32,000 bases of DNA from an uncultured Muribaculaceae bacterium (GCA_964384115.1 CAYLJU010000004.1:14160-46159), one strand, 5' to 3'. Shown: positions 9,005-29,816, numbered from the stretch's first letter. Numbers and translations: made by a program. The notes: generated from the letters alone by a model not told the origin.

Positions 9005-9187
9005 ATGAAAGAGTATAAATTAGGTAGTATTGTTATAATGAAAAAAAATCATCCTTGTGGATCTAATAAATTTGAAGTTGTTAGAATGGGTGCTGACATT
9101 AAAATTAAATGTTTGGAATGTGGACATGTTGTTATGCTTCCAAGGATCGATTTTAATAAAAGAATAAAAAAAATAGAGTCTTATTAG
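9005..9187 (+). CDS. DUF951-family small protein
   Basis: 60 aa with HPCGSNKFEVVRMGADIKIKCLECGH (CxxC-type zinc-ribbon look). Occupies the usual position just downstream of parB in Bacillota. Confidence 0.6.
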   Translation: MKEYKLGSIVIMKKNHPCGSNKFEVVRMGADIKIKCLECGHVVMLPRIDFNKRIKKIESY

Positions 9188-9196
9188 GAGGCAGAT

Positions 9197-10699
9197 ATGT
9201 TTAAGAAAAATGCAAAAGGAATTGGTCCGGTTGTTGTTATTTTGATTTTAACAATGATTGTTATAGTTCTTAGTTCCGTTTGTTCTATTTTAGAATTTCA
9301 GGGAGAAAAAACAGAAATTATAAATGGTACTCTTACTACTTCTTTAGTTTCTGTTCAAAATATATTTACACCAGCTGGTTTTAGATATATTTTAACTAGT
9401 GTTGTTACTAATTTTAAGCTTTTTGAGCCTTTATTTTTACTTATTATTTCTTTGATTGGTATTGGTATAGGTGAAAGATCAGGATTATTTAAAGCTTTAT
9501 TTACGCCATTAAAAAAATTAAAATCGTCTGTTTTGACTTTTATTGTTTTCTTTTTGGGTGTTATTTTTTCTATAGTTGGAGAATATAGTTTTGTTATTTT
9601 AATTCCTATTGCTGGTATTATGTATAAATATACAAATAAGAATTCAATGGTTGGTGTTATTACTGCTTTTTTGGGAATTTGTTTAGGTTATGGTACAGGA
9701 TTAGTTGCTAATTGTTATGATTATGATTTAAGTGTTTTAACTTTGGATGCTGTTAATGCTTCATTTCAGATAGAAAATACTTATAATATGTGGTCAAATT
9801 TTTATATTATGATTATTAGTTCTATTATTATTAGTTTTGTTGGTACTATTATAATCGAAAAATATGTAGTTGTTAATTTTAAAAAGAGTACTTATGAAGA
9901 TGATGAACTTATTGTTGATAGACGCGCGAATATTGTGACTTTAATAACTTTTTTGGCTTTATTTTTGGTTGTTATTTTGGGTATTATTCCTGTTAAACCA
10001 CTTGGATTTTTACTTGATAATAGTGGCGTTAATTATATTAGCAAATTATTTAGTTCTTCATCACCATTTTATGCTGGATTTTTATACATTTTTATATTAA
10101 TTATGTTGATATGTGGTTATGTATATGGAGATGTTTCTAAAAATGTTAAAAATACTACCGAGTATAGTGTTGGTATTTCTTCTTCATTTGAAAAACTTGG
10201 ATATGTTTTTATTCTTATGTTTTTTACATCTCAATTAATTGGAATTTTAGAATGGACTAATTTAGATGTCGTTATAGCTACTAATTTAGTTAATTTCCTT
10301 GGATTAGTTGAATTTTCTGGTGTTCCTTTAATTGTTACTTTCTTTTTGATTGTAATTATTATGACAATTTTTATGCCAAGTTTGATTAGTAAATGGTCTC
10401 TTTGTGCTCCTACTATTGTTCCTCTTTTTATGAGGAGTAATATTGTTCCGTCATTTACGCAATTTATTTTTACTGTAGCTGATGGTATTGGTAAGGCTAT
10501 AACTCCAATATTTGGTTATTTTATTGTTTTTCTTGGTTATTTAGAAAAATATAATGAAAATAAAAAAATTACTATTTTTGGCACGATTAGAAGTATAATT
10601 ATACCTGTTATATTAATAGTGGTTACTTGGATTTTAATATTAGTTGGCTGGTATGTTATTGGTTTACCACTTGGTATTGGTACAAATATAACTATGTAA
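9197..10699 (+). CDS. AbgT-family (p-aminobenzoyl-glutamate / antimetabolite) transporter-like membrane protein
   Basis: 500 aa polytopic protein. Length, N-terminal topology and the IGIGIGERSGLFKAL segment resemble the AbgT/MtrF/YdaH family. Assigned by pattern only. RBS AGGAGG lies upstream. Confidence 0.5.
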   Translation: MFKKNAKGIGPVVVILILTMIVIVLSSVCSILEFQGEKTEIINGTLTTSLVSVQNIFTPAGFRYILTSVVTNFKLFEPLFLLIISLIGIGIGERSGLFKALFTPLKKLKSSVLTFIVFFLGVIFSIVGEYSFVILIPIAGIMYKYTNKNSMVGVITAFLGICLGYGTGLVANCYDYDLSVLTLDAVNASFQIENTYNMWSNFYIMIISSIIISFVGTIIIEKYVVVNFKKSTYEDDELIVDRRANIVTLITFLALFLVVILGIIPVKPLGFLLDNSGVNYISKLFSSSSPFYAGFLYIFILIMLICGYVYGDVSKNVKNTTEYSVGISSSFEKLGYVFILMFFTSQLIGILEWTNLDVVIATNLVNFLGLVEFSGVPLIVTFFLIVIIMTIFMPSLISKWSLCAPTIVPLFMRSNIVPSFTQFIFTVADGIGKAITPIFGYFIVFLGYLEKYNENKKITIFGTIRSIIIPVILIVVTWILILVGWYVIGLPLGIGTNITM

Positions 10700-11970: not shown

Positions 11971-12040
11971 CTATGTCGAGTATTTGATTACTCCTTGCTT
12001 TACTTTGTGTAAAGCCTATGACCATGAGGAGGTGAAAAAG
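11971..12040 (+). ncRNA. rpsF 5' leader with hairpin and anti-SD pairing (candidate S6:S18 autoregulatory leader)
   Basis: 7-bp hairpin GCTTTAC (11997-12003) / GTAAAGC (12009-12015). It is flanked by CTCCTT (11991-11996), which can pair with the SD GAGGAG (12026-12031). Confidence 0.35.
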
Positions 12041-12331
12041 ATGAAAAAATATGAAGTTATGTTTATAGTTAAACCAACTTTATCAGGAGAAGAAGTTAAT
12101 GCTGTAGTTAATAAATATAAGAAAGTATTAACTGATAATAATGCATCTGTAACAGGTGAAACTGATATGGGTCAAAGAGAACTTGCTTATGAAATTAAGA
12201 AATTTAAATCAGGTCATTATTTTGTTTTTAATTTTGATACTGAAAATGAAAATGCTGTAAGTGAATTTAATAGACTTGCAACTATTGATTCTGATATTGT
12301 TCGTCATTTAATTACAAAAGTAGGAGAATAA
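12041..12331 (+). CDS. rpsF: 30S ribosomal protein S6
   Basis: MKKYEVMFIVKP...GQRELAYEIKKFKSGHY. ATG 12041 follows GAGGAGG. The longer ORF from 11984 runs through the leader and promoter-proximal region. Confidence 0.93.
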   Translation: MKKYEVMFIVKPTLSGEEVNAVVNKYKKVLTDNNASVTGETDMGQRELAYEIKKFKSGHYFVFNFDTENENAVSEFNRLATIDSDIVRHLITKVGE

Positions 12332-12333
12332 TT

Positions 12334-12759
12334 ATGAATAAAGCATTATTAGTTGGTCGTATTACGACTAAACCAGAACTTAGAACAACTAATTCTGGAA
12401 TACCTTATACACGTTTTAGTGTAGCAATCAATCGCCCTTTTAGTAATAATGGAGAGAGAAGCGCTGACTTTATTAATATTTTAGTTTGGCGAAAACAAGC
12501 TGAAAATGTATGTAATTTCTTAGACAAAGGTAGTCAAGTTGCTATTGAGGGTAGAATACAAACCGGAAATTATACTGATAAAGATGGAAATAATCGTAAT
12601 TCATTTGAAGTTGTTGCAGATAATGTACAATTCCTTGATTCAAAATCTCAAAGAAATAGTGATGTTAGTATGCCTTCAAATGATGGAATTGATATAAGTA
12701 ATGATACTTATAGTGAATTTGGTGAAAGTGTTTCTATAGATGATAATTTCCTAGAATAG
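12334..12759 (+). CDS. ssb: single-stranded DNA-binding protein
   Basis: [19 protein letters not shown]-fold start and acidic C-terminal tip DDNFLE. Sits between rpsF and rpsR. Confidence 0.93.
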
Positions 12760-12767
12760 GAGAATAT

Positions 12768-12986
12768 ATGGCTGAATTTTATAGAAAAAAGAAAAAAGTA
12801 TGTCAAATGTGTGCTGGAAAAACAGTTGATTATAAAGATGTTGATATTATTAAAAAATATGTAAGCGCTGATAAAGGTAAAATTTTACCTCGTCGTATTA
12901 CTGGTGCTTGCGCTAAACATCAAAGATTTATAGCTGGTGAAGTAAAGAAAGCACGTTTTATGGCTTTAATACCATTTGTTAAATAA
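12768..12986 (+). CDS. rpsR: 30S ribosomal protein S18
   Basis: [44 protein letters not shown]. Confidence 0.93.
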
Positions 12987-13009
12987 GAACTTCGGTTCTT
13001 TTTTATTTT
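12985..13009 (+). terminator. intrinsic terminator of the rpsF operon
   Basis: AAGAAC / TTCG tetraloop / GTTCTT, followed by TTTTATTTT. Confidence 0.7.
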
Positions 13010-13059
13010 ATATAGTATTTTTTATTGATTTTTGTTATAATTAATGTGTGATATGTAAT

Positions 13060-13758
13060 ATGAAATATATAGAAGTTCGTAATTTAAAATATAAAAATAT
13101 TTTTAAAGGTGTTTCTTTTTGTTTAACTGAAAAATGGAATTCTTTTTATGGAAATGAAAAAAGGGATGAACTTATATCTATTTTGCTTGGAAATTGTGAT
13201 TATGAAGGATATATTAATATAGATGGCAATTTTTTAAATAAAAATACTATTTATAATTTAAAAAATAAACTTTATTTAGTAGATAGAAAAAGTGTTTCTT
13301 ATTTTGTTGGTAATAATTTATATGATGAATTATTAATGACTGGTAATAATAAAGAATTAATTGATGATTATATTATAAATTTTCGATTAAGTAATTACAA
13401 ATTTTCTAAAATTGATACTATTCCTTTTGATAAAAAAATTATTGTTTCTATTTTATATGGTATTTTAAAAAAGTACAAATTTATTTATTTAAATAATGTT
13501 TTATGTTTTTTAGAAAAAGAAGATATTATTGCTATATATAATTCATTTATAAAAAATAATATTATAGTATTAAATTTTACGACTAATCCAGATGAATTAA
13601 TTTTTTCTTCTAAAGTTATTATGTTAAAAGATTTTGATGAGTTAGATGTTAAATCTATCAATGATATTAAAATAATTGATTTATGTGATAGGCTTATTAA
13701 TTATGGCGTACTTGATCAAAAATATACTAGTATAGAAGGTGTTGTATCTAATTTATGA
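13060..13758 (+). CDS. degenerate ECF-transporter ATPase-like protein (EcfA1 position; ABC motifs lost)
   Basis: IEVRNLKY..IFKGVSFCL aligns with the ABC N-terminus. The Walker A position reads FYGNEKRDELISILLGN. The signature / Walker B region reads IPFDKKIIVSILYGILKKYKFIYLNNVLCFLEKED. First of three genes immediately upstream of truA. An extended -10 TGtTATAAT lies at 13033-13041. Confidence 0.55.
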   Translation: MKYIEVRNLKYKNIFKGVSFCLTEKWNSFYGNEKRDELISILLGNCDYEGYINIDGNFLNKNTIYNLKNKLYLVDRKSVSYFVGNNLYDELLMTGNNKELIDDYIINFRLSNYKFSKIDTIPFDKKIIVSILYGILKKYKFIYLNNVLCFLEKEDIIAIYNSFIKNNIIVLNFTTNPDELIFSSKVIMLKDFDELDVKSINDIKIIDLCDRLINYGVLDQKYTSIEGVVSNL

Positions 13759-14324
13759 TAATAGATGGTTATGAATTTAAGGGTATAATAAATGGATTTA
13801 CTTTAGATGAAACATTAATTAATTTTAAAAATGAAATAATTGATATAGATAAACAAATACTATGTGTTTCTAAAAAAAAATTAAAGGGTAATGCTAGTAA
13901 ATATATTGATATAGATAGTTTACTATTAAAAAAAAATTTAAGTCATTATGAAAAATTCCTTGTTTTATTGGAAAGTTATTTACTTAATAATCCTGATTGT
14001 ATTGTTTTTAAAAATCTTTTTTGTGATTTTTCAAATGATGAATTAAAAGATTTAGTTTTATTATTTAGAGATTTAAAAAAGAAAAAAGTATGCAAATTTA
14101 TAATTTGTTCTAAAAATGCAGAAATTATTTTAAGTTTATGTGATTATGTTATTGATGAAAGTGGTAGTGGTAAAACTATTGCTGTTTATAAAAATAAAAA
14201 AAATAATTTGCCATTTTGTATTAAGTTTGCAAAAGAACTTGAAGAATGTAAGGGTAAGAAAATAGGAATTTATCGTAATAATATACCTGATTTAGCAAAG
14301 GATGTGTATAGGTATGTGGAATAA
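13755..14324 (+). CDS. truncated, degenerate ECF-transporter ATPase-like protein (EcfA2 position)
   Basis: LSHYEKFLVLLESYLLNNPDCIVFKNLFCDFSNDE aligns with LSGGQ...ILDEPT..LD but with the catalytic residues replaced. The whole P-loop half is missing (189 aa). The C-terminal LPFCIKFAKELEECKGKKIG resembles the EcfA C-terminal helices. ATGA overlap with the upstream gene. Confidence 0.5.
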   Translation: MIIDGYEFKGIINGFTLDETLINFKNEIIDIDKQILCVSKKKLKGNASKYIDIDSLLLKKNLSHYEKFLVLLESYLLNNPDCIVFKNLFCDFSNDELKDLVLLFRDLKKKKVCKFIICSKNAEIILSLCDYVIDESGSGKTIAVYKNKKNNLPFCIKFAKELEECKGKKIGIYRNNIPDLAKDVYRYVE

Positions 14325-14916
14325 TATTGTTAGGTCTGTACCATCTTATTTTAAAATAATATCTATGTTATTATTTTGTTTGTCAACTGTCATTTGTTTT
14401 GATTATTTAGGAATAATATTACTTTTTTGTATTCTTTTATTTGTAACTATAAGAAGTGATATTAATGTTTCTGTATATATATTACCGATATATGAAGTTT
14501 TAATTCTTGTATTTTTGTGTTTTATTTGTCATTTACATTTTATTTATATTTTTAAAATTATATTAATTTTGTGTTATATAAAATATTTATTAGCTGTTAA
14601 TAACTATTTAACATTAGATAATTCTTTAACAAAAATATTTAGATATGGTTTTTTTAAAATAATAAAAAAATATGATATTTTAAGGTCTTATTATAAATTA
14701 AATGTAAAAACAAATTATTCTTTATATAGTAAAAAAAATAGATTTAAATCTTTATATTTAGCATATATAGAAGTTAAAAATGATAATATGCAAAAAATAG
14801 TAAACTCTAGAAATTATTTAATTGTTGAGTCTAAAAAAAATGTATACGATTATTTATTTGTTATAATGCATGCATTATGTTTGATTTTTTGCTTATTTTT
14901 GGAGGTATATAGATGA
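14302..14916 (+). CDS. small polytopic membrane protein at the EcfT position (EcfT-like, highly diverged)
   Basis: 204 aa with several hydrophobic helices. Overlaps the previous gene and overlaps truA by ATGA. The call is positional only; I could not see the EcfT Ala-Arg-Gly motifs. ATG 14314 is an alternative start. Confidence 0.4.
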   Translation: MCIGMWNNIVRSVPSYFKIISMLLFCLSTVICFDYLGIILLFCILLFVTIRSDINVSVYILPIYEVLILVFLCFICHLHFIYIFKIILILCYIKYLLAVNNYLTLDNSLTKIFRYGFFKIIKKYDILRSYYKLNVKTNYSLYSKKNRFKSLYLAYIEVKNDNMQKIVNSRNYLIVESKKNVYDYLFVIMHALCLIFCLFLEVYR

Positions 14917-15638
14917 GATATTTTATGAAATTTAGTTATAATGGTTCTAAATTTAATGGTTATCAGAAACAAGTTGATAAGCGTACTGTTCAGGGAGATT
15001 TAGAAACTACTTTAAGCAAAATTTTTAATTCCAATATAAGAGTTGTTGCTTCTGGTAGAACAGATGCTGGTGTTCATGCATATAACCAATGTTTACATTT
15101 CGATTCTTCTAAAGTTTTTGATTTTGAAAAATTGAGATATTCTTTGAATAGTTTACTTAATAATATTTATATAAAAGAAATATATAGTGTTTCTTCAAGT
15201 TTTCATGCAAGATATGATGTTATAAGTAAAGAATATGTTTATAAAATTAACATTGGTGAATTTGATCCTATAATGGAGGAATATGTTTATCAGTATAATA
15301 AAAATTTGGATATAGAAAAAATGAAGGAAGCAATTAAATTTTTTGTTGGTGAACATGATTTTAGATCATTTACTTCTTTGGATTATGAAAAAAACTGTAA
15401 TCGTATCATTTATAGCGCGAATATAAGTTTAAAAGATAATATTATTAGTATTGATTTTGTTGGTAATGGTTTTTTAAAATATATGGTTAGAAATATGGTT
15501 GGTTTATTAATAGAAATAGGAGCTTCAAAACGTGATACTGAATCTGTTAAAAAGATACTTGATCTAAAAGATAGAAAAGAAGCTGGTATATGTGCTTCTG
15601 CTTGTGGATTATACTTAGTTAACGTTAATTATAGTTGA
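14913..15638 (+). CDS. truA: tRNA pseudouridine(38-40) synthase TruA
   Basis: YNGSKFNGYQKQ, ASGRTDAGVHA, HDFRSF, FLKYMVRNMVG. GGAGG RBS. Confidence 0.93.
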   Translation: MRYFMKFSYNGSKFNGYQKQVDKRTVQGDLETTLSKIFNSNIRVVASGRTDAGVHAYNQCLHFDSSKVFDFEKLRYSLNSLLNNIYIKEIYSVSSSFHARYDVISKEYVYKINIGEFDPIMEEYVYQYNKNLDIEKMKEAIKFFVGEHDFRSFTSLDYEKNCNRIIYSANISLKDNIISIDFVGNGFLKYMVRNMVGLLIEIGASKRDTESVKKILDLKDRKEAGICASACGLYLVNVNYS

Positions 15639-15664
15639 AAATTTAAGAAATTTGTTTTTTTAGG

Positions 15665-15693
15665 TTGACAAAGGTATTCTATTTTAATATAAT
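15665..15693 (+). promoter_or_regulatory. consensus sigma-A promoter of rplM-rpsI
   Basis: TTGACA (15665-15670), 17-nt spacer, TATAAT (15688-15693). Confidence 0.65.
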
Positions 15694-15699
15694 CTATAC

Positions 15700-15770
15700 T
15701 GGTACATTTTATTAAGCCCATTAGATCGAATCTTGGGACAATTCGATCAAAATTAAGAAAGGGAAAGAAT
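15700..15770 (+). ncRNA. rplM 5' leader hairpin (candidate L13-type ribosomal-protein leader)
   Basis: Perfect 8-bp stem GATCGAAT (15724-15731) / ATTCGATC (15741-15748) with loop CTTGGGACA, about 20 nt before the RBS. Confidence 0.35.
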
Positions 15771-16205
15771 ATGAAAAATAGTTATATGCAAAGAGCAGAA
15801 GACGTAAAACGTGATTGGTATGTAATTGATGCTACTGATGTTAATTTAGGTAGATTAGCTACAAAAGTTGCGCATGTTTTACGCGGAAAGCATAAACCAA
15901 CTTTTACACCTCATGTTGATTGTGGAGATTGTGTAATTGTTATAAATGCTTCAAAAGTTAATTTAACTGGTGATAAGTTAGATAACAAAATTTATTATAA
16001 CCATAGTGGTTATACTGGTGGTCTTCGTGAAAGAACTGCTAGAGTAATGAAAGAAAAATATCCAGTAGAAATGGTTGAAAGAGCTGTTAAAGGAATGCTT
16101 CCTAAAGGACGTTTAGGTCGTCAAATGTATACTAAATTATTTGTATATGAAGGAGAAAATCATCCACATGCTGCTCAAAAACCAGTGAAAATGGAAGTTA
16201 AGTAG
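15771..16205 (+). CDS. rplM: 50S ribosomal protein L13
   Basis: KRDWYVIDA...[30 protein letters not shown]. Confidence 0.95.
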
Positions 16206-16213
16206 GAGGAAAT

Positions 16214-16627
16214 ATGGCAGAAAGATTATTTATTGGAACTGGTCGCAGAAAATCTTCTGTAGCCCAAGTTAGAATGGTACCTGGAACAGGTAAAATTACT
16301 GTTAATGGTCGTGACGTTCATGATTTCTTTCCATATGAAACTAACGTTATGGATTTAAAACAACCACTTGTTGCAACTAACAATGAAAATACTTTTGATA
16401 TTGATGTAGTTGTTAAGGGTGGAGGTTTTACTGGCCAAACTGGTGCGATTCGTTTAGGTATTACTCGTGCATTATTAGAGTATGATAAAGCAAACGAAGG
16501 CAATGAAAATAGTTATCGTAAATTATTAAAAGTTGCTGGTTTTGTTACTCGTGATTCTCGTAAGAAAGAACGTAAAAAACCAGGTCTTAAAGCTGCTCGT
16601 CGTGCACCACAATTCAGTAAGAGATAA
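16214..16627 (+). CDS. rpsI: 30S ribosomal protein S9
   Basis: [11 protein letters not shown]...[26 protein letters not shown]-terminal [18 protein letters not shown]. Confidence 0.95.
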
Positions 16628-16644
16628 TATTATTGTTTTGTTAA

Positions 16645-16673
16645 ACTCAATAGGTTCTATCTATTGGGTTTTT
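16645..16673 (+). terminator. intrinsic terminator after rpsI
   Basis: About 10-bp stem ACTCAATAGG / CTATTGGGT (with G-U pairs), loop near 16556-16558 offset by 100, i.e. 16656-16658, followed by TTTTT. Confidence 0.65.
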
Positions 16674-16744: not shown

Positions 16745-16954
16745 ATGATTTTAGAAGGAAAAATTATTGATATTAATGAATGTTTTGGTACTGTTGAAAT
16801 TGGTGATATTAAATATAAATTTTCTTTGAATCTTGTTTATGGGGATAAAATTGAAATTGGTAATTTAGTAAAGGTTAGATTAGAAAATGGTATCGTTAAA
16901 ATAGTTAATAAATATGAAATTGTTGAATTGGAGGAATTTTTAGATGTTGATTAA
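16745..16954 (+). CDS. small hypothetical protein (69 aa, beta-rich look)
   Basis: Intact ORF overlapping the downstream methyltransferase gene by 11 nt. No motif recognised. Confidence 0.4.
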   Translation: MILEGKIIDINECFGTVEIGDIKYKFSLNLVYGDKIEIGNLVKVRLENGIVKIVNKYEIVELEEFLDVD

Positions 16955-19206: not shown

Positions 19207-19279
19207 CTTATTAATAATGGTGAAGATAACTTGTATTTAAATAAAAAAAATGATATATTATTATAGGAGTATGATTGTT

Positions 19280-22105
19280 ATGGTAGAAGAAATTAAGAGA
19301 GCTATTGATAATAATGATATTGGCAAGCTTTATGCTTGTGGATTTTTTATGGATTCTTCCATTAAAGATTATATTTTAAAAAATAAGAGAAGAATTATAA
19401 GTGATATCCTTAATTTAAAACTTTGGTTAGATGATGAACTTGTACTTTCTTTTTATTCCGATAATGATTTTATAAAGGCTTCAATTATGGTTTCTAATAT
19501 AGATGTAGCGAGATTTTTTAATAATGAAGAAATTAATAATTTTTTGCTTAATAATATGAATCATATAGTTAGATTTATGAATGAAAAAACTTATGTTCTT
19601 TCTAATAAGACACCTAAAGTGTTATTAAATAATGAAAATTTTATTAAATTATGTTTAGATAATGGTTTTATTAATATACTTGATTATACAGATTGTGATG
19701 ATTATTATTTAGAAAATAAAGAAAAAATCGATATAGAATGTTCAAATAAGATTGCTAAGGGGATAATTAGAGTAGATGAGTTTTCTTCTAAAAAAATTCT
19801 TTCAAATTCTAAGTTTTTAATTAGTTCTATAATTGGTAATCATTATGATATTTTACTTTTTAGTTCTAATTCTGAACTTGATAGATATATTGAAGATAAT
19901 TATAAAAAAATATCGAAAAAATTAGATGGTTTTATTAGAAATAATAATTATTTTATTAACAAAAATGTTGATATAAAATTACCTTTCTTTTTAGGTGTTT
20001 ATAAAAATTTGTTAAATAGAGATTTTATGAATAGAGTTATTGATAATGATTTTCTTAAAATAATTGAAAACAGCGATTTTTGTTATTTGGTTTCTTTTTT
20101 AACAGATGATGTTATATTAGATGTTTTTGGTAAAAAAATATTTCAATTGTATTTATTTTTTGGTATAGAATTTTTTAATATTGGTTATGATAAAATTTGT
20201 TTAATAAATTCATTTTCAATAATTGAGTATGAAAGATTTATTAAAATATTTTGTTTTGATGGTTTTATTAAGATGGAAAATGTTCGTAATATGTATTTTT
20301 CTATTATTAAAGGCGAGTTTGAAAAAAAATCTTTATTTAATAAAGATTCTGTTTTAATGATTGAAAATATCATTAAATCTCAAGGATTAATTGATGATTC
20401 TATTAAAATAAAAATTGAGCATTTAAAAGAAATTTTAGGTTCTTCATATCGTGATTTTTTAATTGATTTAATAAAAGATAATTTTCGTTTTGATCTTAAA
20501 AAGTCTTTTAATGAGTTGATAGATGATGTCTTTGATGCCTATAGACGTTCTATTATTTCTTTAGATATGGATAAACAAAACAAACTTGAAAATGTTATTG
20601 AAAGTTTGTTTGTGTGTGCATATGATAGAGAATTTGATTTATTTGCCGCTAGTAAAATGGATTTTAGTGATGGTTATCCTTTTCTTGTTGAACCTAGCGA
20701 TATTTATATTAAAAGGGTTTATAAGGAGAAAAAACTTCAAAAACTTAAAAATAAATTATTAGAAAATAACAAATTATTTAATGAATTATGTCAAAATGTT
20801 TATTCAGATTATACTAATGTTTCTTTTGATTTTTATGTTAAAGATGTAAGAAAGTATTTGGAAAAAAATGAATTTACTTTGCAAGATTTGAACAAAAATG
20901 TTGATAATTATCTTAGTAGATATGTTAATTTAGAAGATATAGATTCATTTTATATTGAATATTTTAATCTTCCTTTAACTGATGAATATTTGAAAACTTA
21001 TTGTAATATAAAGACTGTTTTAAGTATTTTAAATGATGTTGATATTTGTAAAATTCGTTTTATGTTACAAGATGAAAATTATGGTAAATTTAAAGAGTTT
21101 TTATTTGATAAACAATTATTATATATGCTTGATAGTTTTAGTTTATTACCATCATTTTATAACAAAAAAAATTTGGAAAATTTGATTAATAATTTATATA
21201 TATTAAAAGAGGAAAATTTATATGATATTTTTAAAGAAGCAATTAGATATAGCGAAATTTCTTCCTTATTTAATCCAATATTTAGTGAATTTTCTAGTTA
21301 TTTAATTAATGATTCAAAATATTTGAGTGAAGTATTAAGTAGATCTTATAAAACTCTTTCTAAAAGAAGTTTACCTATTCCTGATATTTCAAAAAAATAT
21401 TTAGTGAATAATCACGAAATTACGGTTTCGGTTGGTGGATATGATTATAATGATGTTTTTCTTCCGTTACTTGTTAATTCTGATGTAATGGTTTATTCAA
21501 AATATGATGATCTTCATAAATATATTTTTAGTAATGATAATGGTTTTATTTTAAAATTTTATGATAATAAATTAATAGGTCTTATTTTTGGTATTAGATA
21601 TGGTAATAGTATATTTTTGTCTAATGTGTCTTCTATTGTTCATTCTAGTTATATTGATTTGCCATTAAAAAAGTTTATTGAATATATTGTTGATTATTGT
21701 AATCAAAATGGCGATAATTTGAGACATATATATTTATCTGTTAATGGTGATGTTAATAAATTATTTAGTTTAGTTAATAGTCTTGTTTCTGTTTCTACTG
21801 ATTATGATAAAAAAGGTTTTGTTTTATATGATGATGGAACAAAAGTTAGTGGATATATAAAAAAACGTTATCCTATTAATCCTATTATTTATACAAATGA
21901 GGAAGCTGTTAGACGGGCAAATGCAATAAAAATAATTGATTTATTTGGGCATCATGAAGAAAATTTAATTAATAGTATTAATTATATTGATGCTAGTTTG
22001 GCAGGTAGGTCTTGGTATAAGGATGAAGATATTTTTGTTATAGGATCTATTTCTGATGATATAATCAAAGAAGTTAATATAGGCAAAGAAAGGATTAGGA
22101 AATAA
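19280..22105 (+). CDS. giant uncharacterised protein, paralog A (about 941 aa; up to 951 aa if ATG 19250 is used)
   Basis: A 2.8-kb uninterrupted ORF in DNA where stop codons are very frequent. AGGAG at 19265-19269 favours ATG 19280; 19271 and 19250 are also in frame. Colinear similarity to the next ORF. No TM segment, signal peptide or known catalytic motif seen. Confidence 0.7.
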   Translation: MVEEIKRAIDNNDIGKLYACGFFMDSSIKDYILKNKRRIISDILNLKLWLDDELVLSFYSDNDFIKASIMVSNIDVARFFNNEEINNFLLNNMNHIVRFMNEKTYVLSNKTPKVLLNNENFIKLCLDNGFINILDYTDCDDYYLENKEKIDIECSNKIAKGIIRVDEFSSKKILSNSKFLISSIIGNHYDILLFSSNSELDRYIEDNYKKISKKLDGFIRNNNYFINKNVDIKLPFFLGVYKNLLNRDFMNRVIDNDFLKIIENSDFCYLVSFLTDDVILDVFGKKIFQLYLFFGIEFFNIGYDKICLINSFSIIEYERFIKIFCFDGFIKMENVRNMYFSIIKGEFEKKSLFNKDSVLMIENIIKSQGLIDDSIKIKIEHLKEILGSSYRDFLIDLIKDNFRFDLKKSFNELIDDVFDAYRRSIISLDMDKQNKLENVIESLFVCAYDREFDLFAASKMDFSDGYPFLVEPSDIYIKRVYKEKKLQKLKNKLLENNKLFNELCQNVYSDYTNVSFDFYVKDVRKYLEKNEFTLQDLNKNVDNYLSRYVNLEDIDSFYIEYFNLPLTDEYLKTYCNIKTVLSILNDVDICKIRFMLQDENYGKFKEFLFDKQLLYMLDSFSLLPSFYNKKNLENLINNLYILKEENLYDIFKEAIRYSEISSLFNPIFSEFSSYLINDSKYLSEVLSRSYKTLSKRSLPIPDISKKYLVNNHEITVSVGGYDYNDVFLPLLVNSDVMVYSKYDDLHKYIFSNDNGFILKFYDNKLIGLIFGIRYGNSIFLSNVSSIVHSSYIDLPLKKFIEYIVDYCNQNGDNLRHIYLSVNGDVNKLFSLVNSLVSVSTDYDKKGFVLYDDGTKVSGYIKKRYPINPIIYTNEEAVRRANAIKIIDLFGHHEENLINSINYIDASLAGRSWYKDEDIFVIGSISDDIIKEVNIGKERIRK

Positions 22106-24753
22106 TGGAATTCGTAAGAGAGAGATTACCACACTATAATGATGAAAATGTTTTTAATGATTTTATAAATAATGGTTATTATGAAATTATTAATTATTCT
22201 GAATTAGGTAATAAATTTGTTTTAAATAATTACTATTTAATTATTGATTTGATTAAGAAAAACGAATATTTTATTTGTTCTGTTAGCCCTAGTAATATAA
22301 AAAATGATTATCGATTTTATTTAGCTTCTTTTGAAAGTGGTAATGTTGATTCAATATTCTTTTATAAAGGAGATATTCATATATTTGATGAATTTTTTAG
22401 AGAAAAAAGAAATTTGATAAATTCATTTGATTGGTTAAATGTTAAAATTAAATTAAAGAAAATTTTAGATTTTAATTCTGTTATTACTGATATTTATTTT
22501 GAGGATCTTAATAGAAAAATACTTGATGGTTCTATTGGTTTAGATGATTTAATTAAAAATCCATTTTATAATAAAATTGTTGATTTTTTATCGTTAGATT
22601 CTATAAAAAAATTATATGGAGTTAATAGCCTTGAATTTGTTAGTAGATATGGTCGTAAGATTCTTTTAAATGAAGATTATGAATATATTGAAAACTTAGA
22701 AATTAATGATTTGAATAAATTTTTTGAAATTTTTAAATTTAAAAATGGTTCTATTATTAATTTATATAATTTATATAGTTCACTTGTTGATTATAATTTT
22801 TTATATAAATGTAGTGGTGATGTTTTAAATAATCAAACTTATAATCATTTATGTATTAATTTATTTAGTGGTAAAAATATAGATTATATATTCTTATTGT
22901 TTGAGGAAATTAATAAATATTTAAATGATTTTGAAAAGAATAAAATATGTTCTAAGTATAATGTTGATTTTCAAAGTTTACCTTTGTTGTTTGATAAATT
23001 TATTAATTTGTATAAATCTGAAAATTATAATGATTTTAATATCTATAGTTCAATAATTAAAGATTTATGTTTAATGTCTTATAATAAAAAAAGAGATTCT
23101 TTTATTAAAGAAAAACATGATTTTAGTAATGGTTTTCCTTTTGATATACAGTTAACTTTGAAGATGAAAAGACTTATTAATAAACGAAAATTAATGAAAG
23201 ATATGGCTATTTCAATAGCATATGATAAAGAAAAATTAGATTCTTTAAAGGAATATTTGGTTAATAAAAAAATTATTGATAAAGATTTTGATTCCAATAT
23301 TTTGTTTGCTTTGTTAACTGATGGTGTTAAAGGAGTTAAATTGATTGAAATTGAGAATGTTAATTATTTAATGGGAAAAATACTTGGTTTTGTTAGTTCT
23401 TATATTGATGATGATTGTTTGAATTCTGATATAAAATTTGATGAATATAAGAATTTACCTTTAAATGATGATTGTTTTTATGTACCATTTGATAAAAATG
23501 ATTTAATTGATATTGTTAATTCTATTGATTTAAAATTTTTCTTTGAAACTGTTATTAAAAATAAAAATGTTTTTGAATTGTTTAATAATTATATTGTTAA
23601 ACATGATTTAATTTATTTTGTTTCATCATTAAAATTATGTGATGTTTGTTATTGTGGTGATGTTTGTTATAGTATAGTTGGTATGAAAGAATTAATTAAT
23701 AATTTTGCTAAAGTTATTAACATAAATGTTGATAAAAAATTATATATATCAATATTTGAGATGTTAAAGAAAGCTCATTTTGTTAATAATCCACTTAATA
23801 TTTATGAAAATGTTTTTGGAGATTCTAATAAGTGGATTATAAGTGATCCTTTACCACATAAAAGTTCATTAGAACCATCAAAAAAAATAAAAAGATGTAT
23901 GGATGTTTACAAAAAAATGCTTGTACGAGATTATATAGGTGTTCCTGTTTTTACTATGAATTATGGTGATTTAATAGTGACAAATGATAATTTTTATGAT
24001 GATGGAATGCTTGTTACTGGAGAAAAACTTGGGTCTTGTATGCGAGCAGGTGGAACTTTTGATAATTTGTTTGAATATACTCTTACATCTCCTAACGGAT
24101 TTAATATAATTTTTAAAAAAGATGGTGAATTAATTTCGAGAGTAGCTGGCGTTATTATTAAAAATTCTATTTTTTTGAATGAATTAAGAGAACCTTTATG
24201 TAATGATTATTCTAATGATTATTTATTTAATGCTTTAAAAAAATATATTTTAAATTTAGTTAAAAAAGCTAATTTAAATGGTCAAATTATTGATCAAGTA
24301 TTTGTTGTTAATGGTGTTCAAGGAACGAGAAATATAAATTCCAATATTGTTAGAGATGATTTGTTTTTAAAATTAAAAAATGGCTATTACGGCTTTAATA
24401 TGAATTATGAAAAAACAGGATTGTGTTTATATATAAATGAAAATAAAGCTTTAAAAAATAATTATAATTGTTCTTTTTGCTCTATAAATGGCAACACTAA
24501 ATACTATAAAATATCTAAATTTAAAACTTTAAGAGGTTCTGATGCTGTTAAAAGAATAAATATGTTGCGTTTTTTAAAAGGTAGTTTAGATTATATTGAT
24601 AGTTTTGATGATGCTATTTGTTCTAGTTGTTTTTATGTTTATAAAAAAGATGGTATAATTTACTCTGATATTTTGGATGGAGCTATATCTGATGAAATAA
24701 AATGTGAATATGAAAATGCCATAAATTCTTTAAATTTCAGAAAAAATATTTGA
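22105..24753 (+). CDS. giant uncharacterised protein, paralog B (882 aa; Cys-containing C-terminal module)
   Basis: Its start overlaps the stop of paralog A (TAATG at 22103-22107). Shared blocks include DFSNGFPF / DFSDGYPF, NLPLNDD / NLPLTDE, NGFNIIFKKDGELISRVAGVIIKNSIFLNEL / NGFILKFYDNKLIGLIFGIRYGNSIFLSNV and VFVVNG / IYLSVNG. Confidence 0.7.
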   Translation: MEFVRERLPHYNDENVFNDFINNGYYEIINYSELGNKFVLNNYYLIIDLIKKNEYFICSVSPSNIKNDYRFYLASFESGNVDSIFFYKGDIHIFDEFFREKRNLINSFDWLNVKIKLKKILDFNSVITDIYFEDLNRKILDGSIGLDDLIKNPFYNKIVDFLSLDSIKKLYGVNSLEFVSRYGRKILLNEDYEYIENLEINDLNKFFEIFKFKNGSIINLYNLYSSLVDYNFLYKCSGDVLNNQTYNHLCINLFSGKNIDYIFLLFEEINKYLNDFEKNKICSKYNVDFQSLPLLFDKFINLYKSENYNDFNIYSSIIKDLCLMSYNKKRDSFIKEKHDFSNGFPFDIQLTLKMKRLINKRKLMKDMAISIAYDKEKLDSLKEYLVNKKIIDKDFDSNILFALLTDGVKGVKLIEIENVNYLMGKILGFVSSYIDDDCLNSDIKFDEYKNLPLNDDCFYVPFDKNDLIDIVNSIDLKFFFETVIKNKNVFELFNNYIVKHDLIYFVSSLKLCDVCYCGDVCYSIVGMKELINNFAKVININVDKKLYISIFEMLKKAHFVNNPLNIYENVFGDSNKWIISDPLPHKSSLEPSKKIKRCMDVYKKMLVRDYIGVPVFTMNYGDLIVTNDNFYDDGMLVTGEKLGSCMRAGGTFDNLFEYTLTSPNGFNIIFKKDGELISRVAGVIIKNSIFLNELREPLCNDYSNDYLFNALKKYILNLVKKANLNGQIIDQVFVVNGVQGTRNINSNIVRDDLFLKLKNGYYGFNMNYEKTGLCLYINENKALKNNYNCSFCSINGNTKYYKISKFKTLRGSDAVKRINMLRFLKGSLDYIDSFDDAICSSCFYVYKKDGIIYSDILDGAISDEIKCEYENAINSLNFRKNI
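23639..23670 (+). repeat. 14-nt direct repeat at 18-nt period inside paralog B (encodes CDVCYC-GDVCYS)
   Basis: GTGATGTTTGTTAT occurs at 23639-23652 and again at 23657-23670. Confidence 0.8.
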
Positions 24754-24784: not shown

Positions 24785-24976
24785 AAGCGAAGAACAAGAA
24801 TTTTTAAAGATAAGTTTATAGAGAGTTTACTAATGGTGGAAGGTAAATAATAAGTTTTTAAAATGTGCTACTTGGGAGTTGAGTAATAAAATTACTTCGG
24901 TTTAGGCCGTTATAAAATTAAGTTAAATAAAGGATGGTACCGTCTATTATAGACTCCTTGTACTATTCTTTTTTTT
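24785..24976 (+). ncRNA. T-box leader (tRNA-Ala, GCU specifier) with terminator/antiterminator
   Basis: AGAGAG box at 24820-24825. GCT followed by A at 24867-24870, in the context ...AAAATGTGCTACTTGGGAG. T-box sequence AAAGGATGGTACCGTC at 24929-24944, whose UGGU can pair with the ACCA end of a tRNA with discriminator A73. Terminator helix GGATGGTAC (24932-24940) / GTACTATTC (24960-24968), followed by T8. Possible stem I base AAAGCGAAG / CTTCGGTTT. Confidence 0.8.
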
Positions 24977-24986
24977 GGAGGTATTT

Positions 24987-26732
24987 ATGAATTTAAAAGA
25001 TATGTATATTAATTTTTTTGTAAGTAAGGGTCATACATGGATTCCTAGCAGTCCTGTTGTTCCTGAAAATGATCCATCTGTTTTATTTAATACTGCTGGT
25101 ATGCAACCACTTATACCATATTTAATGGGGGAACCTCATCCTTGTGGAACTAGGCTTTGCGATTATCAGAAATGTATTAGAACAAATGATTTAGACAATA
25201 TTGGAGATACTTATCATCATACTTTTTTTGAGATGTTAGGTAATTGGAGTTTAGGAGATTATTTTAAGAAAGAGGCTATTAGTTGGAGTTTTGAATTTTT
25301 GACAGATGTTTTAAAAATTCCTGTTCAAAAATTAGCTGTTACTGTATTTGCTGGAGATGAATTTGTTCCTTTTGATGAAGAATCTTATAATTTGTGGAGA
25401 AGTTTAGGTATCCCTGATGATAGAATCGCGCGAACTAGTTCAGATAATTTTTGGATTGCTGGGGATACTGGTCCATGTGGTCCGGATACGGAAATGTTTT
25501 ATTTTAGATCTTCTGATCCTGTTCCTGATAAGTTTGATCCAGAAGATGATAGATGGGTTGAAATATGGAATGATGTCTTTATGCAATATTATAAAGATTC
25601 TAATGGTAATATAAGTGAATTACCTAAAAAGAATGTTGATACTGGTATGGGTCTTGAGAGAGTTGTTACAGTATTAGAAAATTTAACAGATAATTATAAA
25701 TCTAGTGTTTGGAAAGATATCATTAAAGTCATAGAAGAAATTTCTGGTAAAAGTTATGAAGGAAATGAGAAGTCTATGAGAATTATTGCTGATCATATTA
25801 GAACATCTACCTTTATTGCTGCTGATAAATCAGGAATAAAGCCTAGTAATACTGATCAAGGTTATATTTTAAGAAGATTGATAAGAAGGGCAATTAGACA
25901 TGCTAAAAAATTAGAAATTGATATTAACAGTAATTTTGAAGAAAAAATTGCTTCTAAGATAATTGAACAATATGGAAAATATTATAGCGAATTGATTGAT
26001 AATAAAAATGTTGTTTTTGATGTTTTAAAAAATGAAAAAATTAAATTTTGTAGAACACTTGAAAAAGGATTAAGAGAATTTGAAAAAGTTGCTAGTAATG
26101 GAAATAATATTGATGGCATAACTGCTTTTCATTTGTTTGATACTTATGGTTTTCCTCTTGAATTAACTGTTGAGCTTGCTAGTGAGAAGAATTTAACTGT
26201 TGATGAAGAAGGTTTTATGGATAAATTTAGAGAGCACCAAGAGTTATCTAGAACTGCTAGTTCTGGTAAATTTAAAGGTGGACTTGCTAGTAGTGGAGAG
26301 ATGGAAACTAAATATCATACGGCAACACATTTACTTAATGCTGCTTTGAAGGTTGTAGTAAGTAAAGATTGTCACCAAAAAGGTTCAAATATTACTAGTG
26401 AAAGAATGCGCTTTGATTTTAGTTGTGATCATAAATTATCTGATGATGAAAAAATTAAAGTTGAGGAATTAGTTAATAAATGGATAAGTGATTCTATTGA
26501 TGTCAATGTAACAGAAATGAGTAAACAAGATGCTATTGATAGTGGTGCAGAATGTATGTTTATTGAAAAATATCCTGATATTGTTACAGTCTATAGTATT
26601 GGAAATGTTTCAAAAGAAGTTTGTGGTGGTCCACATGTAAAGAATACTTCTGAACTTGGCCATTTTAAAATTTTAAAAGAAGAGGCTAGTAGTGCTGGTG
26701 TGAGAAGAATAAAAGCTATTTTAGAAAAATAA
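24987..26732 (+). CDS. alaS: alanine--tRNA ligase, compact form (581 aa)
   Basis: N-terminal FFVSKGHTWIPSSPVVPENDPSVLFNTAGMQP, GPCGPDTEMFY, WNDVFMQY, DTGMGLERV. Editing-core motifs HTATH and CGGPHV. Ends ...SSAGVRRIKAILEK. ATG 24987 follows GGAGG. Confidence 0.92.
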   Translation: MNLKDMYINFFVSKGHTWIPSSPVVPENDPSVLFNTAGMQPLIPYLMGEPHPCGTRLCDYQKCIRTNDLDNIGDTYHHTFFEMLGNWSLGDYFKKEAISWSFEFLTDVLKIPVQKLAVTVFAGDEFVPFDEESYNLWRSLGIPDDRIARTSSDNFWIAGDTGPCGPDTEMFYFRSSDPVPDKFDPEDDRWVEIWNDVFMQYYKDSNGNISELPKKNVDTGMGLERVVTVLENLTDNYKSSVWKDIIKVIEEISGKSYEGNEKSMRIIADHIRTSTFIAADKSGIKPSNTDQGYILRRLIRRAIRHAKKLEIDINSNFEEKIASKIIEQYGKYYSELIDNKNVVFDVLKNEKIKFCRTLEKGLREFEKVASNGNNIDGITAFHLFDTYGFPLELTVELASEKNLTVDEEGFMDKFREHQELSRTASSGKFKGGLASSGEMETKYHTATHLLNAALKVVVSKDCHQKGSNITSERMRFDFSCDHKLSDDEKIKVEELVNKWISDSIDVNVTEMSKQDAIDSGAECMFIEKYPDIVTVYSIGNVSKEVCGGPHVKNTSELGHFKILKEEASSAGVRRIKAILEK

Positions 26733-26766
26733 ATTTATAGAAAACATATATTTTATTGAGGTGTTT

Positions 26767-27402
26767 ATGAAAAAAATATATGTTTTTTTAATTGTTTTTT
26801 TTATTTTTTTTGTTTCTGTTGTTAAATCAAAAAATAATGTATTATCAGGTAAAATAATTTATTTGGATGCTGGTCATGGTGGAGTTGATGGTGGCGCTAA
26901 GTATAAAGATATTAATGAAGAAGATATTAATTTATCTATTGTTATGACTTTGAAGGAAGAATTGGAAAAAGAAGGGGCAAAGGTATATTTAACTAGATAT
27001 GGTGATTATGATTTAGCTAGTACAACGTATTATCGAAAAAGAAGTGATTTAGGTAATAGAGCTCTCGTGATAAACAATTCTGATTGTGATTTATATTTAT
27101 CAATTCATTTAAATTCATCTTTGAATACAAGTTGGAATGGAGCTCAAGTTTTTTATGATGATATTAATCCTAAAAATGCCATTTTAGCTAACATTTTACA
27201 AAAAGAATTAAGTAATAAAAAGGCTGTTTTGGCCAATAATTATTATATGTATAGTAGAATTAAAAAAACTGGTGTTTTATTGGAAGTTGGATTTATAAGT
27301 AATTATAATGATAGAATTAACTTGCAAAATAAAGTGTATCAAATAAAAATTTCTGCAAATATTATAAAAGGAATTGTAAAATTTTTTACAAACAATTATT
27401 AA
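26767..27402 (+). CDS. N-acetylmuramoyl-L-alanine amidase (Amidase_3, CwlD-like size)
   Basis: N-terminal signal/anchor, then IIYLDAGHGGVDGGA, EEDINLSI, SIHLNS, LLEVGFISN. Confidence 0.8.
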   Translation: MKKIYVFLIVFFIFFVSVVKSKNNVLSGKIIYLDAGHGGVDGGAKYKDINEEDINLSIVMTLKEELEKEGAKVYLTRYGDYDLASTTYYRKRSDLGNRALVINNSDCDLYLSIHLNSSLNTSWNGAQVFYDDINPKNAILANILQKELSNKKAVLANNYYMYSRIKKTGVLLEVGFISNYNDRINLQNKVYQIKISANIIKGIVKFFTNNY

Positions 27403-27406
27403 CTCA

Positions 27407-27435
27407 TTGACTTTTGTTTTTGTTTGGGGTAGAAT
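27407..27435 (+). promoter_or_regulatory. sigma-A type promoter of the TasA-like gene pair
   Basis: TTGACT (27407-27412), 17-nt spacer, TAGAAT (27430-27435). GAGGAGG follows at about 27470, then ATG 27485. Confidence 0.55.
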
Positions 27436-27484
27436 TATATTGTATGATAGATATGGTTATGATAACAATGAGGAGGGTTTTGCT

Positions 27485-28003
27485 ATGAAGAATAGAAATA
27501 AAGTTATAATTTTTTTAGTGATTGCTCTATTAATGATAGGTGGCGTTACTTATGCTTTGTATATTCAATCTTCTGTAGCAAAAGGAACTTCTATAGTTGC
27601 TAGGTGGCGCTTTAAGGCAAACAATAGCAAGGAATCTTTTACCATAGATTTAACAAAAAATGCCTCTAATTTATTAAATGGTAAAATTGGTCCTGGTTCT
27701 TATGGATCATTTGATATCATTTTGGATGGAACTGGCAGTCAAGTTGATATTGATTATGTTGTTTCATTTGATAAATTAGAAAATATTCCAATGAATATGA
27801 AATTTTATGCTGATGCTGGAAAAAGTAAAACTGTTAGTTTATCTTCATATGAGATTAATGGTGTTATTTCTTATGGTGGCAGTATGCAAAAAAAATATAC
27901 TATTTATTGGGAATGGCCAATTGATGGTAATGGCGATACAAGTTATGCTGGAAAAACTTTGAGTTTTGATGTTCTTGTTGATGCTGTTCAAAAAACTAAT
28001 TAA
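27485..28003 (+). CDS. TasA/camelysin-family (peptidase M73-like) secreted protein with SipW-type signal peptide, copy 1
   Basis: MKNRNKVIIFLVIALLMIGGVTYALY signal. KIGPGSYGSFDIILDGTGS resembles the TasA NLKPGDK..F.F.N.GS strand. C-terminal YAGKTLSFDVLVDAVQ resembles TasA YQGNSIKLQFSFEATQ. The TTG at 27407 in the ORF track is the -35 box. Confidence 0.55.
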   Translation: MKNRNKVIIFLVIALLMIGGVTYALYIQSSVAKGTSIVARWRFKANNSKESFTIDLTKNASNLLNGKIGPGSYGSFDIILDGTGSQVDIDYVVSFDKLENIPMNMKFYADAGKSKTVSLSSYEINGVISYGGSMQKKYTIYWEWPIDGNGDTSYAGKTLSFDVLVDAVQKTN

Positions 28004-29808: not shown

Positions 29809-29816
29809 GAGGAATT

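Follow-up and report, generated by a model that had tools for sequence, protein, structure and literature searches.

We analysed a 32 kb, AT-rich stretch of DNA (CAYLJU010000004.1:14160-46159, about 25% G+C; hereafter the window), in which three overlapping open reading frames (ORFs), ORF1, ORF2 and ORF3, lie immediately before truA-rplM-rpsI. In Bacillota, the genes for the energising module of energy-coupling factor (ECF) transporters, ecfA1-ecfA2-ecfT, typically adjoin truA-rplM-rpsI on this upstream side. The explanation that we favour, with slightly better than even confidence, is that the trio descends from such a module, that its ATP sites are dead, that it is under selection, and that its products still form an A1-A2-T complex, which would act as a passive platform for S-components. 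The genes concerned are arranged as follows.

ORF1, 13060-13758 (or 13048-13758), plus strand: 232 amino acids (aa) from ATG, 236 aa from GTG
ORF2, 13755-14324, plus strand: 189 aa
ORF3, 14314-14916 (or 14302-14916), plus strand: 200 aa from the conserved ATG, 204 aa otherwise
truA-rplM-rpsI, 14913-16627: directly after the trio
truA, 14913-15638, plus strand: match to TIGR00071 (E 4e-60); strong ribosome-binding site, GGAGG, within ORF3

A first-pass annotation of the window had described three overlapping ORFs in the slot before truA-rplM-rpsI, with ATGA junctions at 13755 and 14913, and had quoted several peptides from them; the frames, the junctions and every quoted peptide are found where it placed them. 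The ATG at 13060 is the start of ORF1 used by all homologues. ORF1 overlaps ORF2, and ORF3 overlaps truA, by ATGA (13755-13758 and 14913-14916), and ORF2 and ORF3 share 11 nucleotides (nt). The overlap of start and stop codons is retained at all three trio junctions; such overlaps are typical for subunits made in fixed proportion. At the base composition of the trio, ~11% of random codons are stops. With 39% A and 43% T in the region, the chances of open frames of 232, 189 and 200 codons are 3e-12, 4e-10 and 1e-10, respectively. ORF1-ORF3 are therefore real genes rather than chance open frames, in line with the earlier argument from frames open across AT-rich DNA. Genetic code 4, in which TGA encodes tryptophan and which would alter the ATGA junctions, was ruled out: tryptophan is encoded by TGG, and TGA is a true stop, because truA, udg, parB and htrA end with TGA at normal lengths.

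Relationship to canonical ECF modules

Anchoring on TruA, we collected 73 genome loci. In many of these, the slot before truA is filled by three ORFs of ~268, 283 and 252 aa. The trio of locus L007 matches TIGR04520 (ECF ATPase 1, E 1e-82), TIGR04521 (ECF ATPase 2, E 4e-91) and TIGR02454 (ECF T component, E 9e-16), and canonical modules are present in the same slot in L007, L012, L020, L030, L059 and others; by gene order, the window trio belongs with them. Profile-profile comparison with hhalign pairs each window family with its intact syntenic counterpart: ORF1 with EcfA1 over the full length (98.4%, E 8e-15), ORF2 with EcfA2 (98.2%, E 5e-14, residues 51-182 against 142-283) and ORF3 with EcfT over the full length (94.1%, E 1.3e-7). 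All cross-pairs among the three families and EcfA1, EcfA2 and EcfT are insignificant. Searches with hmmsearch, using profiles of the three window families, match exactly these syntenic intact proteins, with E values down to 1e-13 (the best value being that of ORF2). Full-length homologues of the window proteins themselves number 18 for ORF1 (59-97% identity), 13 for ORF2 (57-96%) and 17 for ORF3 (45-98%).

General-purpose models do not recognise the trio. A Pfam scan of ORF1-ORF3 gave no match even at E 10, and the sole NCBIfam match of the trio is that of ORF1 to the EcfA model PRK13635 (E 5e-4, 19 bits vs a cut-off of 392), so that none of the three proteins is a member by the curated models TIGR04520, TIGR04521, PF00005 and PF02361/TIGR02454. 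A HMMER profile of the ORF1 family, run against all PDB sequences, found no ABC (ATP-binding cassette) protein and returned only noise (Hfq, PdaA; E >0.1). The ORF3 family profile, run against 1.84 billion representatives, retrieved 4 clusters of the same small family; no canonical EcfT was among them, and the homology of ORF3 thus rests on the syntenic intermediates.

The AlphaFold2 (AF2) model of ORF1 (mean predicted local distance difference test score, pLDDT, 86.9) shows an ABC nucleotide-binding fold with the helical extension at the C-terminus that characterises ECF ATPases. Its top Foldseek matches are the EcfA chains 6zg3_F and 8bmp_A of solved ECF transporters (E 2e-12, template modelling (TM) score 0.76-0.78). 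The C-terminal domain of ORF2 aligns well with intact EcfA2. The ORF3 model (pLDDT 65.8) has the helix arrangement of EcfT: four membrane helices at the N-terminus, then a helical region in the cytoplasm, then a single membrane helix at the C-terminus. Foldseek returned 12 matches for this model; nine of them, the eight best among these, are EcfT chains (7nnu_D, 6zg3_D, 4huq_T and others), although the matches are weak (E about 0.1, TM 0.42-0.47). The ECF homology proposed in the first-pass annotation is borne out by these comparisons, and synteny and profile matches together point to the trio being a positional orthologue of group II ecfA1-ecfA2-ecfT.

Loss of ATPase motifs in ORF1 and ORF2

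Motifs were extracted column by column after alignment to canonical references with hmmalign. The corresponding segments of the two putative ATPase subunits read as follows.

ORF1 Walker A remnant, 13150-13173, plus strand: GNEKRDEL (aligned GNE--KRDE) vs canonical GHNGSGKST
ORF1 Q-loop/Q-helix region, 13279-13335, plus strand: VDRKSVSYF vs VFxNPDNQF; Q-helix lost
ORF1 signature remnant, 13420-13440, plus strand: IPFDKKI vs LSGGQKQ
ORF1 Walker B remnant, 13480-13503, plus strand: FIYLNNVL vs hhhhDEAx (YLNNV vs ILDEA)
ORF1 H-loop remnant, 13570-13587, plus strand: LNFTTN vs INITH[DN] (FTTN vs ITHN); His gone
ORF2 Walker A: whole region absent vs canonical GHTGSGKST
ORF2 Q-helix remnant (with next helix), 13803-13850, plus strand: LDETL aligned to PE[EY]Q[LF]
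ORF2 signature remnant, 13938-13952, plus strand: LSHYE (LSHYEKF vs LSGGQKR; LSxGE/Q)
ORF2 Walker B remnant, 14001-14018, plus strand: IVFKNL vs hhhhDEP (VFKNL vs ILDEP)
ORF2 H-loop remnant, 14100-14117, plus strand: IICSKN vs IIxSHD (CSKN vs ITHD)

Walker A, the signature, the Asp-Glu pair of Walker B and the H-loop His are retained in neither ORF1 nor ORF2. In ORF1, the Walker A remnant lacks Lys-Ser/Thr; the AF2 model shows a loop of 4 residues at this site, flanked by strand 26-30 and helix 35-43, and in related species the loop is shorter by a further two residues. The Q-helix remnant of ORF2, LDETL, keeps the acidic residue and has lost Pro and Gln. ORF2 lacks ~85 N-terminal residues, comprising strands 1-3 and the P-loop, and starts about ten residues before the Q-helix. 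It is best described as a 5'-truncated derivative of EcfA2 that has lost the N-terminal third of the RecA-like core. The first-pass annotation had ORF2 lacking the P-loop half; the region is indeed absent, and the loss can now be placed more precisely, as a 5' truncation starting just before the Q-helix.

Two other readings of the alignment were rejected. An internal deletion in ORF2 was considered; a MAFFT alignment scatters the N-terminus of ORF2, and hmmalign and manual comparison put residues 1-21 on the strand and Q-helix just past the deleted region. A P-loop hidden by mis-registration was also considered; hmmalign shows a gap or non-matching residues at this position in every family member. 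Alignment to intact syntenic EcfA1 and EcfA2 thus places the motifs in the register that the earlier annotation had assumed, no P-loop is found elsewhere, and the loss of the ATPase motifs that it had reported stands. Since every site motif is gone from both subunits, both composite ATP sites are destroyed, and ATP binding and hydrolysis are predicted to be absent in the complex. The trio and its close relatives are referred to below as dead in this sense.

ORF3 and the subunit contact elements

The C-terminal helices mediate A-A' dimerisation in group II modules, whereas the contacts between A and T subunits are made by the Q-helix motif X-P-D/E-X-Q-hydrophobic and by an acidic groove residue, an Asp that binds an arginine of EcfT (PMC6828968). 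The equivalent elements in the trio are listed here.

ORF1 C-terminal helices, 13672-13755, plus strand: IIDLCDRLINYGVLD (13672-13716) and onward; dimerisation element
ORF2 C-terminal domain, 14208-14321, plus strand: LPFCIKFAKELEECKGKKIG at 14208-14267; tail GIYRNNIPDLAKDVYRYVE
ORF3 first Ala-Arg-Gly position, 14707-14715, plus strand: invariant K-T-N
ORF3 second Ala-Arg-Gly position, 14803-14817, plus strand: variable R/K/N; NSRNY in the window

The segment most conserved between dead and intact proteins is the tail of ORF2 (KNKKIGYRNNIADLAKDVYR vs KGIKMGYRDDINDLIKDIYR; 12 of 20 residues identical, BLOSUM score 65). The C-terminal helices of ORF1 rank second after this EcfA2 tail: they are kept (BLOSUM score 34 over 20 residues against the intact consensus), with ~15 preceding residues deleted. 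The ORF1 helix NLYDELL, which follows the Q-helix region, carries the invariant acidic residue E90, and the ORF2 helix NEIIDID, which follows the Q-helix remnant, carries the invariant D30; by alignment, E90 and D30 would correspond to the canonical groove Asp. The C-terminal helices of ORF1 and both of these acidic residues are invariant within their families. So are several motifs that are new: EKWNSFY and IPFDKK in ORF1, FKN-x-FCDF and CDYV in ORF2, and K-T-N-x-S-x-Y in ORF3.

ORF3 is ~50 residues shorter than EcfT, mostly within the coupling region. In EcfT, two coupling helices each end in Ala-Arg-Gly (X-R-X). Neither motif is found in ORF3, as the first-pass annotation had noticed; the first position is occupied by the invariant K-T-N and the second by a variable R/K/N.

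Selection on the trio

For evidence of selection, we turned to 14 related loci, namely L001-L005 (five species representatives), L074-L076 and L077-L082. All three trio ORFs are present with unchanged lengths in 11 of these; the remaining three lie on contigs that break off within the trio, and every trio ORF reached by a contig is intact. Selection is also indicated by the 13-18 full-length homologues of each protein, which have kept the same length at identities from 98% down to 45%. By the method of Nei and Gojobori, the ratio of nonsynonymous to synonymous substitution rates (dN/dS) between the window and L074, a strain 80-87% identical in protein, is 0.42 for ORF1, 0.18 for ORF2 and 0.19 for ORF3, and 0.11 for truA, 0.04 for the methyltransferase and 0.06 for rplM. 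Because G+C at third positions is just 7-10%, dS is probably underestimated, and the true dN/dS values are likely to be lower.

Conservation can also be compared at matched divergence of the neighbouring TruA. At a TruA identity of 0.73-0.78, the dead trio has identities of 0.62-0.81 (ORF1), 0.58-0.79 (ORF2) and 0.49-0.73 (ORF3); the respective figures for canonical modules of sister lineages, at a TruA identity of 0.72-0.75, are 0.45-0.57, 0.48-0.59 and 0.33-0.58. By this measure, the dead module is constrained at least as much as working ones at equal TruA divergence. All three genes are thus under purifying selection, in a group that is monophyletic and comprises six species or more. The first-pass annotation had proposed selection rather than decay, and had named stop codons or frameshifts in relatives as evidence that would speak against it; the related loci contain no broken trio ORF, and both the dN/dS range and the conservation relative to canonical modules agree with its proposal.

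Five fragments, each on a single contig, were examined as potential pseudogenes and dismissed. P0005 matches the window protein as far as residue 161 and breaks off there, probably because the contig ends; P0020, P0021, P0035 and P0036 are fused to unrelated sequence and are probably misassemblies.

Erosion of ECF modules in related lineages

The host is an uncultured, very AT-rich gut bacterium of the Bacilli. The closest named genome is 'Firmicutes bacterium CAG:884' (TruA 78% identical), and those related contigs that have a stated source come from human gut metagenomes and from metagenome-assembled genomes (MAGs) of human, ruminant, rabbit and chicken gut. Canonical motifs are found in Izemoplasma-like loci (L050, L056, L058), in Erysipelotrichaceae (L059) and in 'Bacilli' MAGs (L007, L012, L020, L023, L030, L039). 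Elsewhere, Walker A has been lost from EcfA1 (L031, L040, L046, L049, L053) or from EcfA2 (L008, L029, L036-38), and the catalytic Glu or the H-loop His has been lost in many lineages. The N-terminus of EcfA2 is missing in L022/25/26, L044-48 and L057, some of which have no ecfT at the locus.

In a rough neighbour-joining tree of TruA+RplM+RpsI (521 columns, no bootstrap), the window and L001-L005 form one clade, nested among lineages with canonical modules, and the other lineages with truncated EcfA2 fall elsewhere. This scatter suggests repeated, independent erosion events. Motif erosion is widespread in the radiation and appears to have several origins, and the window's group represents the most extreme state that still holds all three genes. 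The dead trio, which the first-pass annotation had treated in isolation, is the extreme end of a clade-wide erosion and not a one-off.

Some of the collected loci depart from the three-gene arrangement in other ways. An even smaller relic, in a different clade, is present in the rabbit-gut MAG loci L044, L045, L047 and L048 (about 9016-10004): a 149-aa EcfA1 remnant and a 181-aa truncated EcfA2 precede truA, and there is no ecfT at the locus. In L042 (7607-8417), ecfA1 is split into ORFs of 111 and 162 aa by a frameshift or an assembly error. In L071 (6693-9253), a 288-aa ORF lies between ecfA1 and ecfA2. In L051, L052, L055, L067 and L070, which are Mycoplasma sp. CAG:472-like, ECF genes are absent from the slot before truA, and unrelated ORFs of 300-430 aa take their place.

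Search for S-components

The sequence read for S-components comprised 32 kb of the window genome and ±10 kb around the trio in relatives. None was found in the window among ORFs of at least 100 aa, using a Pfam scan of the ORFs, the Pfam matches of the corresponding genes in L075 and a scan for membrane proteins; the earlier statement that the window has no S-component gene is correct to this extent. When the window and ±10 kb around the trio in seven related loci were scanned for membrane proteins of 130-330 aa, just ORF3, a ZIP transporter and two unrelated ORFs came up.

Transcription and base composition of the locus

The region upstream of ORF1 contains the following features.

rpsF-ssb-rpsR, 11984-12986: directly preceding the trio region
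Weak hairpin and T-run after rpsR, about 12988-13010: precedes the possible -10 element
Possible extended -10 element TGtTATAAT, 13033-13041, plus strand: ~19 nt before the ORF1 ATG

The -10 element was read from the sequence and is weak evidence for a promoter; a consensus promoter scan did not list it, and no -35 hexamer is present. The trio and truA are probably one transcript. A perfect TTGACA-17-TATAAT promoter is located at 15665-15693, right before rplM, and a terminator with a 13-bp stem follows rpsI at 16643-16671; with their own promoter and terminator, rplM-rpsI can be transcribed independently of the trio and truA. An Rfam scan of the whole window gave no match, the L13 leader included. 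The G+C content of the trio genes, 17-20%, is the lowest of the neighbourhood (25-36% in neighbouring genes).

Other genes in the window

Between rpsI and the end of the window, we made a number of observations on other genes. A conserved 69-aa ORF at 16745-16954, without a Pfam match, overlaps the start of a SAM (S-adenosylmethionine) methyltransferase gene; it is present in L074 and L075 and has a dN/dS of 0.13. Two adjacent giant ORFs at 19250-22105 and 22105-24753 encode 951 and 882 aa at 20-21% G+C and have no Pfam match; they are conserved as 941 and 883 aa in L075, a 97%-identical locus, and may be surface proteins. An alanyl-tRNA synthetase ORF of 585 aa (24975-26732; tRNA-synt_2c and tRNA_SAD) apparently lacks the usual C-terminal domain. 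The Amidase_3 (N-acetylmuramoyl-L-alanine amidase) gene at 26761-27402 suggests a peptidoglycan wall despite the Mollicutes-like base composition. The neighbouring ORFs at 27407-28003 and 28062-28682, each of ~200 aa with an N-terminal hydrophobic stretch and no Pfam match, are probably exported proteins; having a single hydrophobic segment each, they are not S-components. An Abi_2 (abortive-infection-like) protein encoded at 28882-29808 (E 1e-39) adjoins an HtrA-type protease (29784-30917).

Discussion

Many Bacillota take up vitamins mainly through ECF transporters, which are also being investigated as drug targets. ATP-driven closure of the EcfA-EcfA' dimer is considered strictly necessary for their mechanism. 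Our literature searches found no description of an ECF module that lacks both ATP sites (ATPase-dead). The dead trio is a variant of a well-known system, seen so far solely in metagenome-derived sequences and by computational means.

The appropriate references for the trio are the canonical group II EcfA1-EcfA2-EcfT complexes of Lactobacillus delbrueckii ECF-FolT/PanT (5D3M, 6ZG3, 8BMP) and L. brevis (4HUQ, 4HZU). The trio shares with them the order ecfA1-ecfA2-ecfT-truA-rplM-rpsI, the fold and C-terminal helices of ORF1, the helix layout of ORF3 and, as far as the alignment shows, acidic residues at the groove position. It differs in that both A subunits are without Walker A, signature, Walker B Asp-Glu and H-loop His; EcfA2 is ~85 residues shorter; EcfT is ~50 residues shorter and has no Ala-Arg-Gly motifs; and the Q-helix of ORF1 is lost. 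ABC transporters with one degenerate site, namely heterodimeric type I/IV exporters such as TM287/288, TAP1/2 and CFTR, are comparable in that catalytic residues have been replaced in a protein under selection. These transporters stay functional, the degenerate site binding ATP via an intact Walker A while the other site hydrolyses it. In the trio, by contrast, neither P-loop is present and neither composite site is consensus; with both sites gone, P-loops included, no ATP-dependent step of the usual kind would be possible. A review of degenerate-site ABC transporters is available as PMC7756269.

The eroded modules of sister lineages (L006, L008, L029/36/37/38, L031/40/46/49/53, L022/25/26, L044-48, L057) occupy the same locus and share ancestry with the trio. 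What they lack varies: the catalytic Glu, the H-loop His, the signature or one Walker A. In several, EcfA2 is truncated. One Walker A or more survives in most of them, often alongside one Walker B Asp-Glu pair, so that these modules may retain one weak ATP site; the window's group has lost all of these motifs in both subunits and still has all three genes. Solitary S-components, such as BioY, transport without an ECF module and provide a precedent for uptake without ATP hydrolysis. In their case the module is absent altogether, whereas a module-like set of genes has been kept and conserved here.

On the reading that we favour, ORF1, ORF2 and ORF3 would still come together in the membrane as an A1-A2-T complex. 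The C-terminal helices, which both dead ATPase domains have kept, would join these domains to each other, and the domains would dock onto the shortened EcfT via the acidic groove residues, E90 of ORF1 and D30 of ORF2. The complex would neither bind nor hydrolyse ATP in the normal ABC manner, and would instead form a passive, permanently open docking platform for S-components in the membrane, with vitamins being taken up down their gradient and uptake driven by metabolic trapping instead of ATP. We prefer a platform role because the elements needed for assembly are retained and because module-free transport by S-components has precedent. A more far-reaching version, which we put forward tentatively and think somewhat unlikely to hold in full, is that a nucleotide-free ECF platform is essential, that it lets S-components topple and release their vitamins, and that this state has evolved repeatedly in the radiation.

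Several observations weigh against the reading that we favour. The Q-helix of ORF1 and both X-R-X motifs of ORF3, the usual contacts between A and T subunits, are not conserved, and the canonical A-T interface must thus at least have been remodelled. The coupling region of ORF3 is modelled with low confidence (pLDDT 43-56), and ORF2 lacks part of the central sheet of its domain. No S-component gene is present in the window or within ±10 kb of the trio in the seven related loci. The dN/dS of ORF1 is fairly high (about 0.4), and the trio's very low G+C suggests that it is less constrained than the neighbouring genes.

The main alternative, which we regard as rather improbable, is that the dead complex or its parts have taken on another role at the membrane, whether structural, chaperone-like or regulatory, that is unrelated to S-component uptake. 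In its favour, new motifs in each family are invariant exactly where the canonical ones have vanished, the canonical A-T contacts are gone, S-components are missing from the vicinity, and the trio is conserved as strongly as working modules, beyond what a passive platform would appear to require. Yet nothing indicates a specific alternative function, be it a new domain, an above-threshold Pfam or NCBIfam match or a change in the neighbourhood, and what dead and intact proteins have most closely in common is the old set of dimerisation and groove elements. The trio could also be a slowly decaying relic, its frames kept open by residual constraint such as coupling of truA translation to ORF3. 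Its low G+C is as expected for decay; so are dN/dS values above those of the flanking genes, most of all in ORF1, the shrinkage of the module from about 2.4 kb when intact to 1.87 kb here, with all three genes shorter, and the full range of erosion stages seen in related lineages, among which are the 149-aa EcfA1 remnant and loci that have lost ecfT. However, translational coupling puts no constraint on amino-acid sequence, and dN/dS is well below 1; the proteins are 49-81% identical where TruA is 73-78% identical, and so no less conserved than canonical modules; none of the 14 related loci has a disrupted trio ORF; and maintenance of the frames by chance has a probability of about 1e-10 per gene. 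We therefore consider decay improbable. Just as little credence is given to the trio being an accessory copy that modulates a second, canonical ecfAAT elsewhere in the genome, for instance by competing for S-components or by forming mixed complexes. The sequence read covered 32 kb of this genome and ±10 kb of its relatives, and mixed or regulatory pseudo-subunits are known in other protein families, but the dead trio is the positional orthologue of the canonical module of its relatives rather than an extra copy, and duplicated modules are unusual in small, reduced genomes, as these probably are.

The proteins of the trio fall below all curated thresholds and are likely to go unnamed (one source name is simply 'unknown'); eroded modules that are still recognised may be mistaken for functional transporters when metabolism is reconstructed. 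The gradient from canonical to dead modules provides a ready series for separating residues required for assembly from those required for catalysis, and a module that is dead and yet conserved is a natural experiment on what the scaffold does without its motor. If the more far-reaching version of the platform is correct, the window would encode an ECF transporter that naturally works without ATP, in a gut bacterium that depends on vitamins and has a reduced genome, and the motor of an ABC importer could be lost while its scaffold keeps working.

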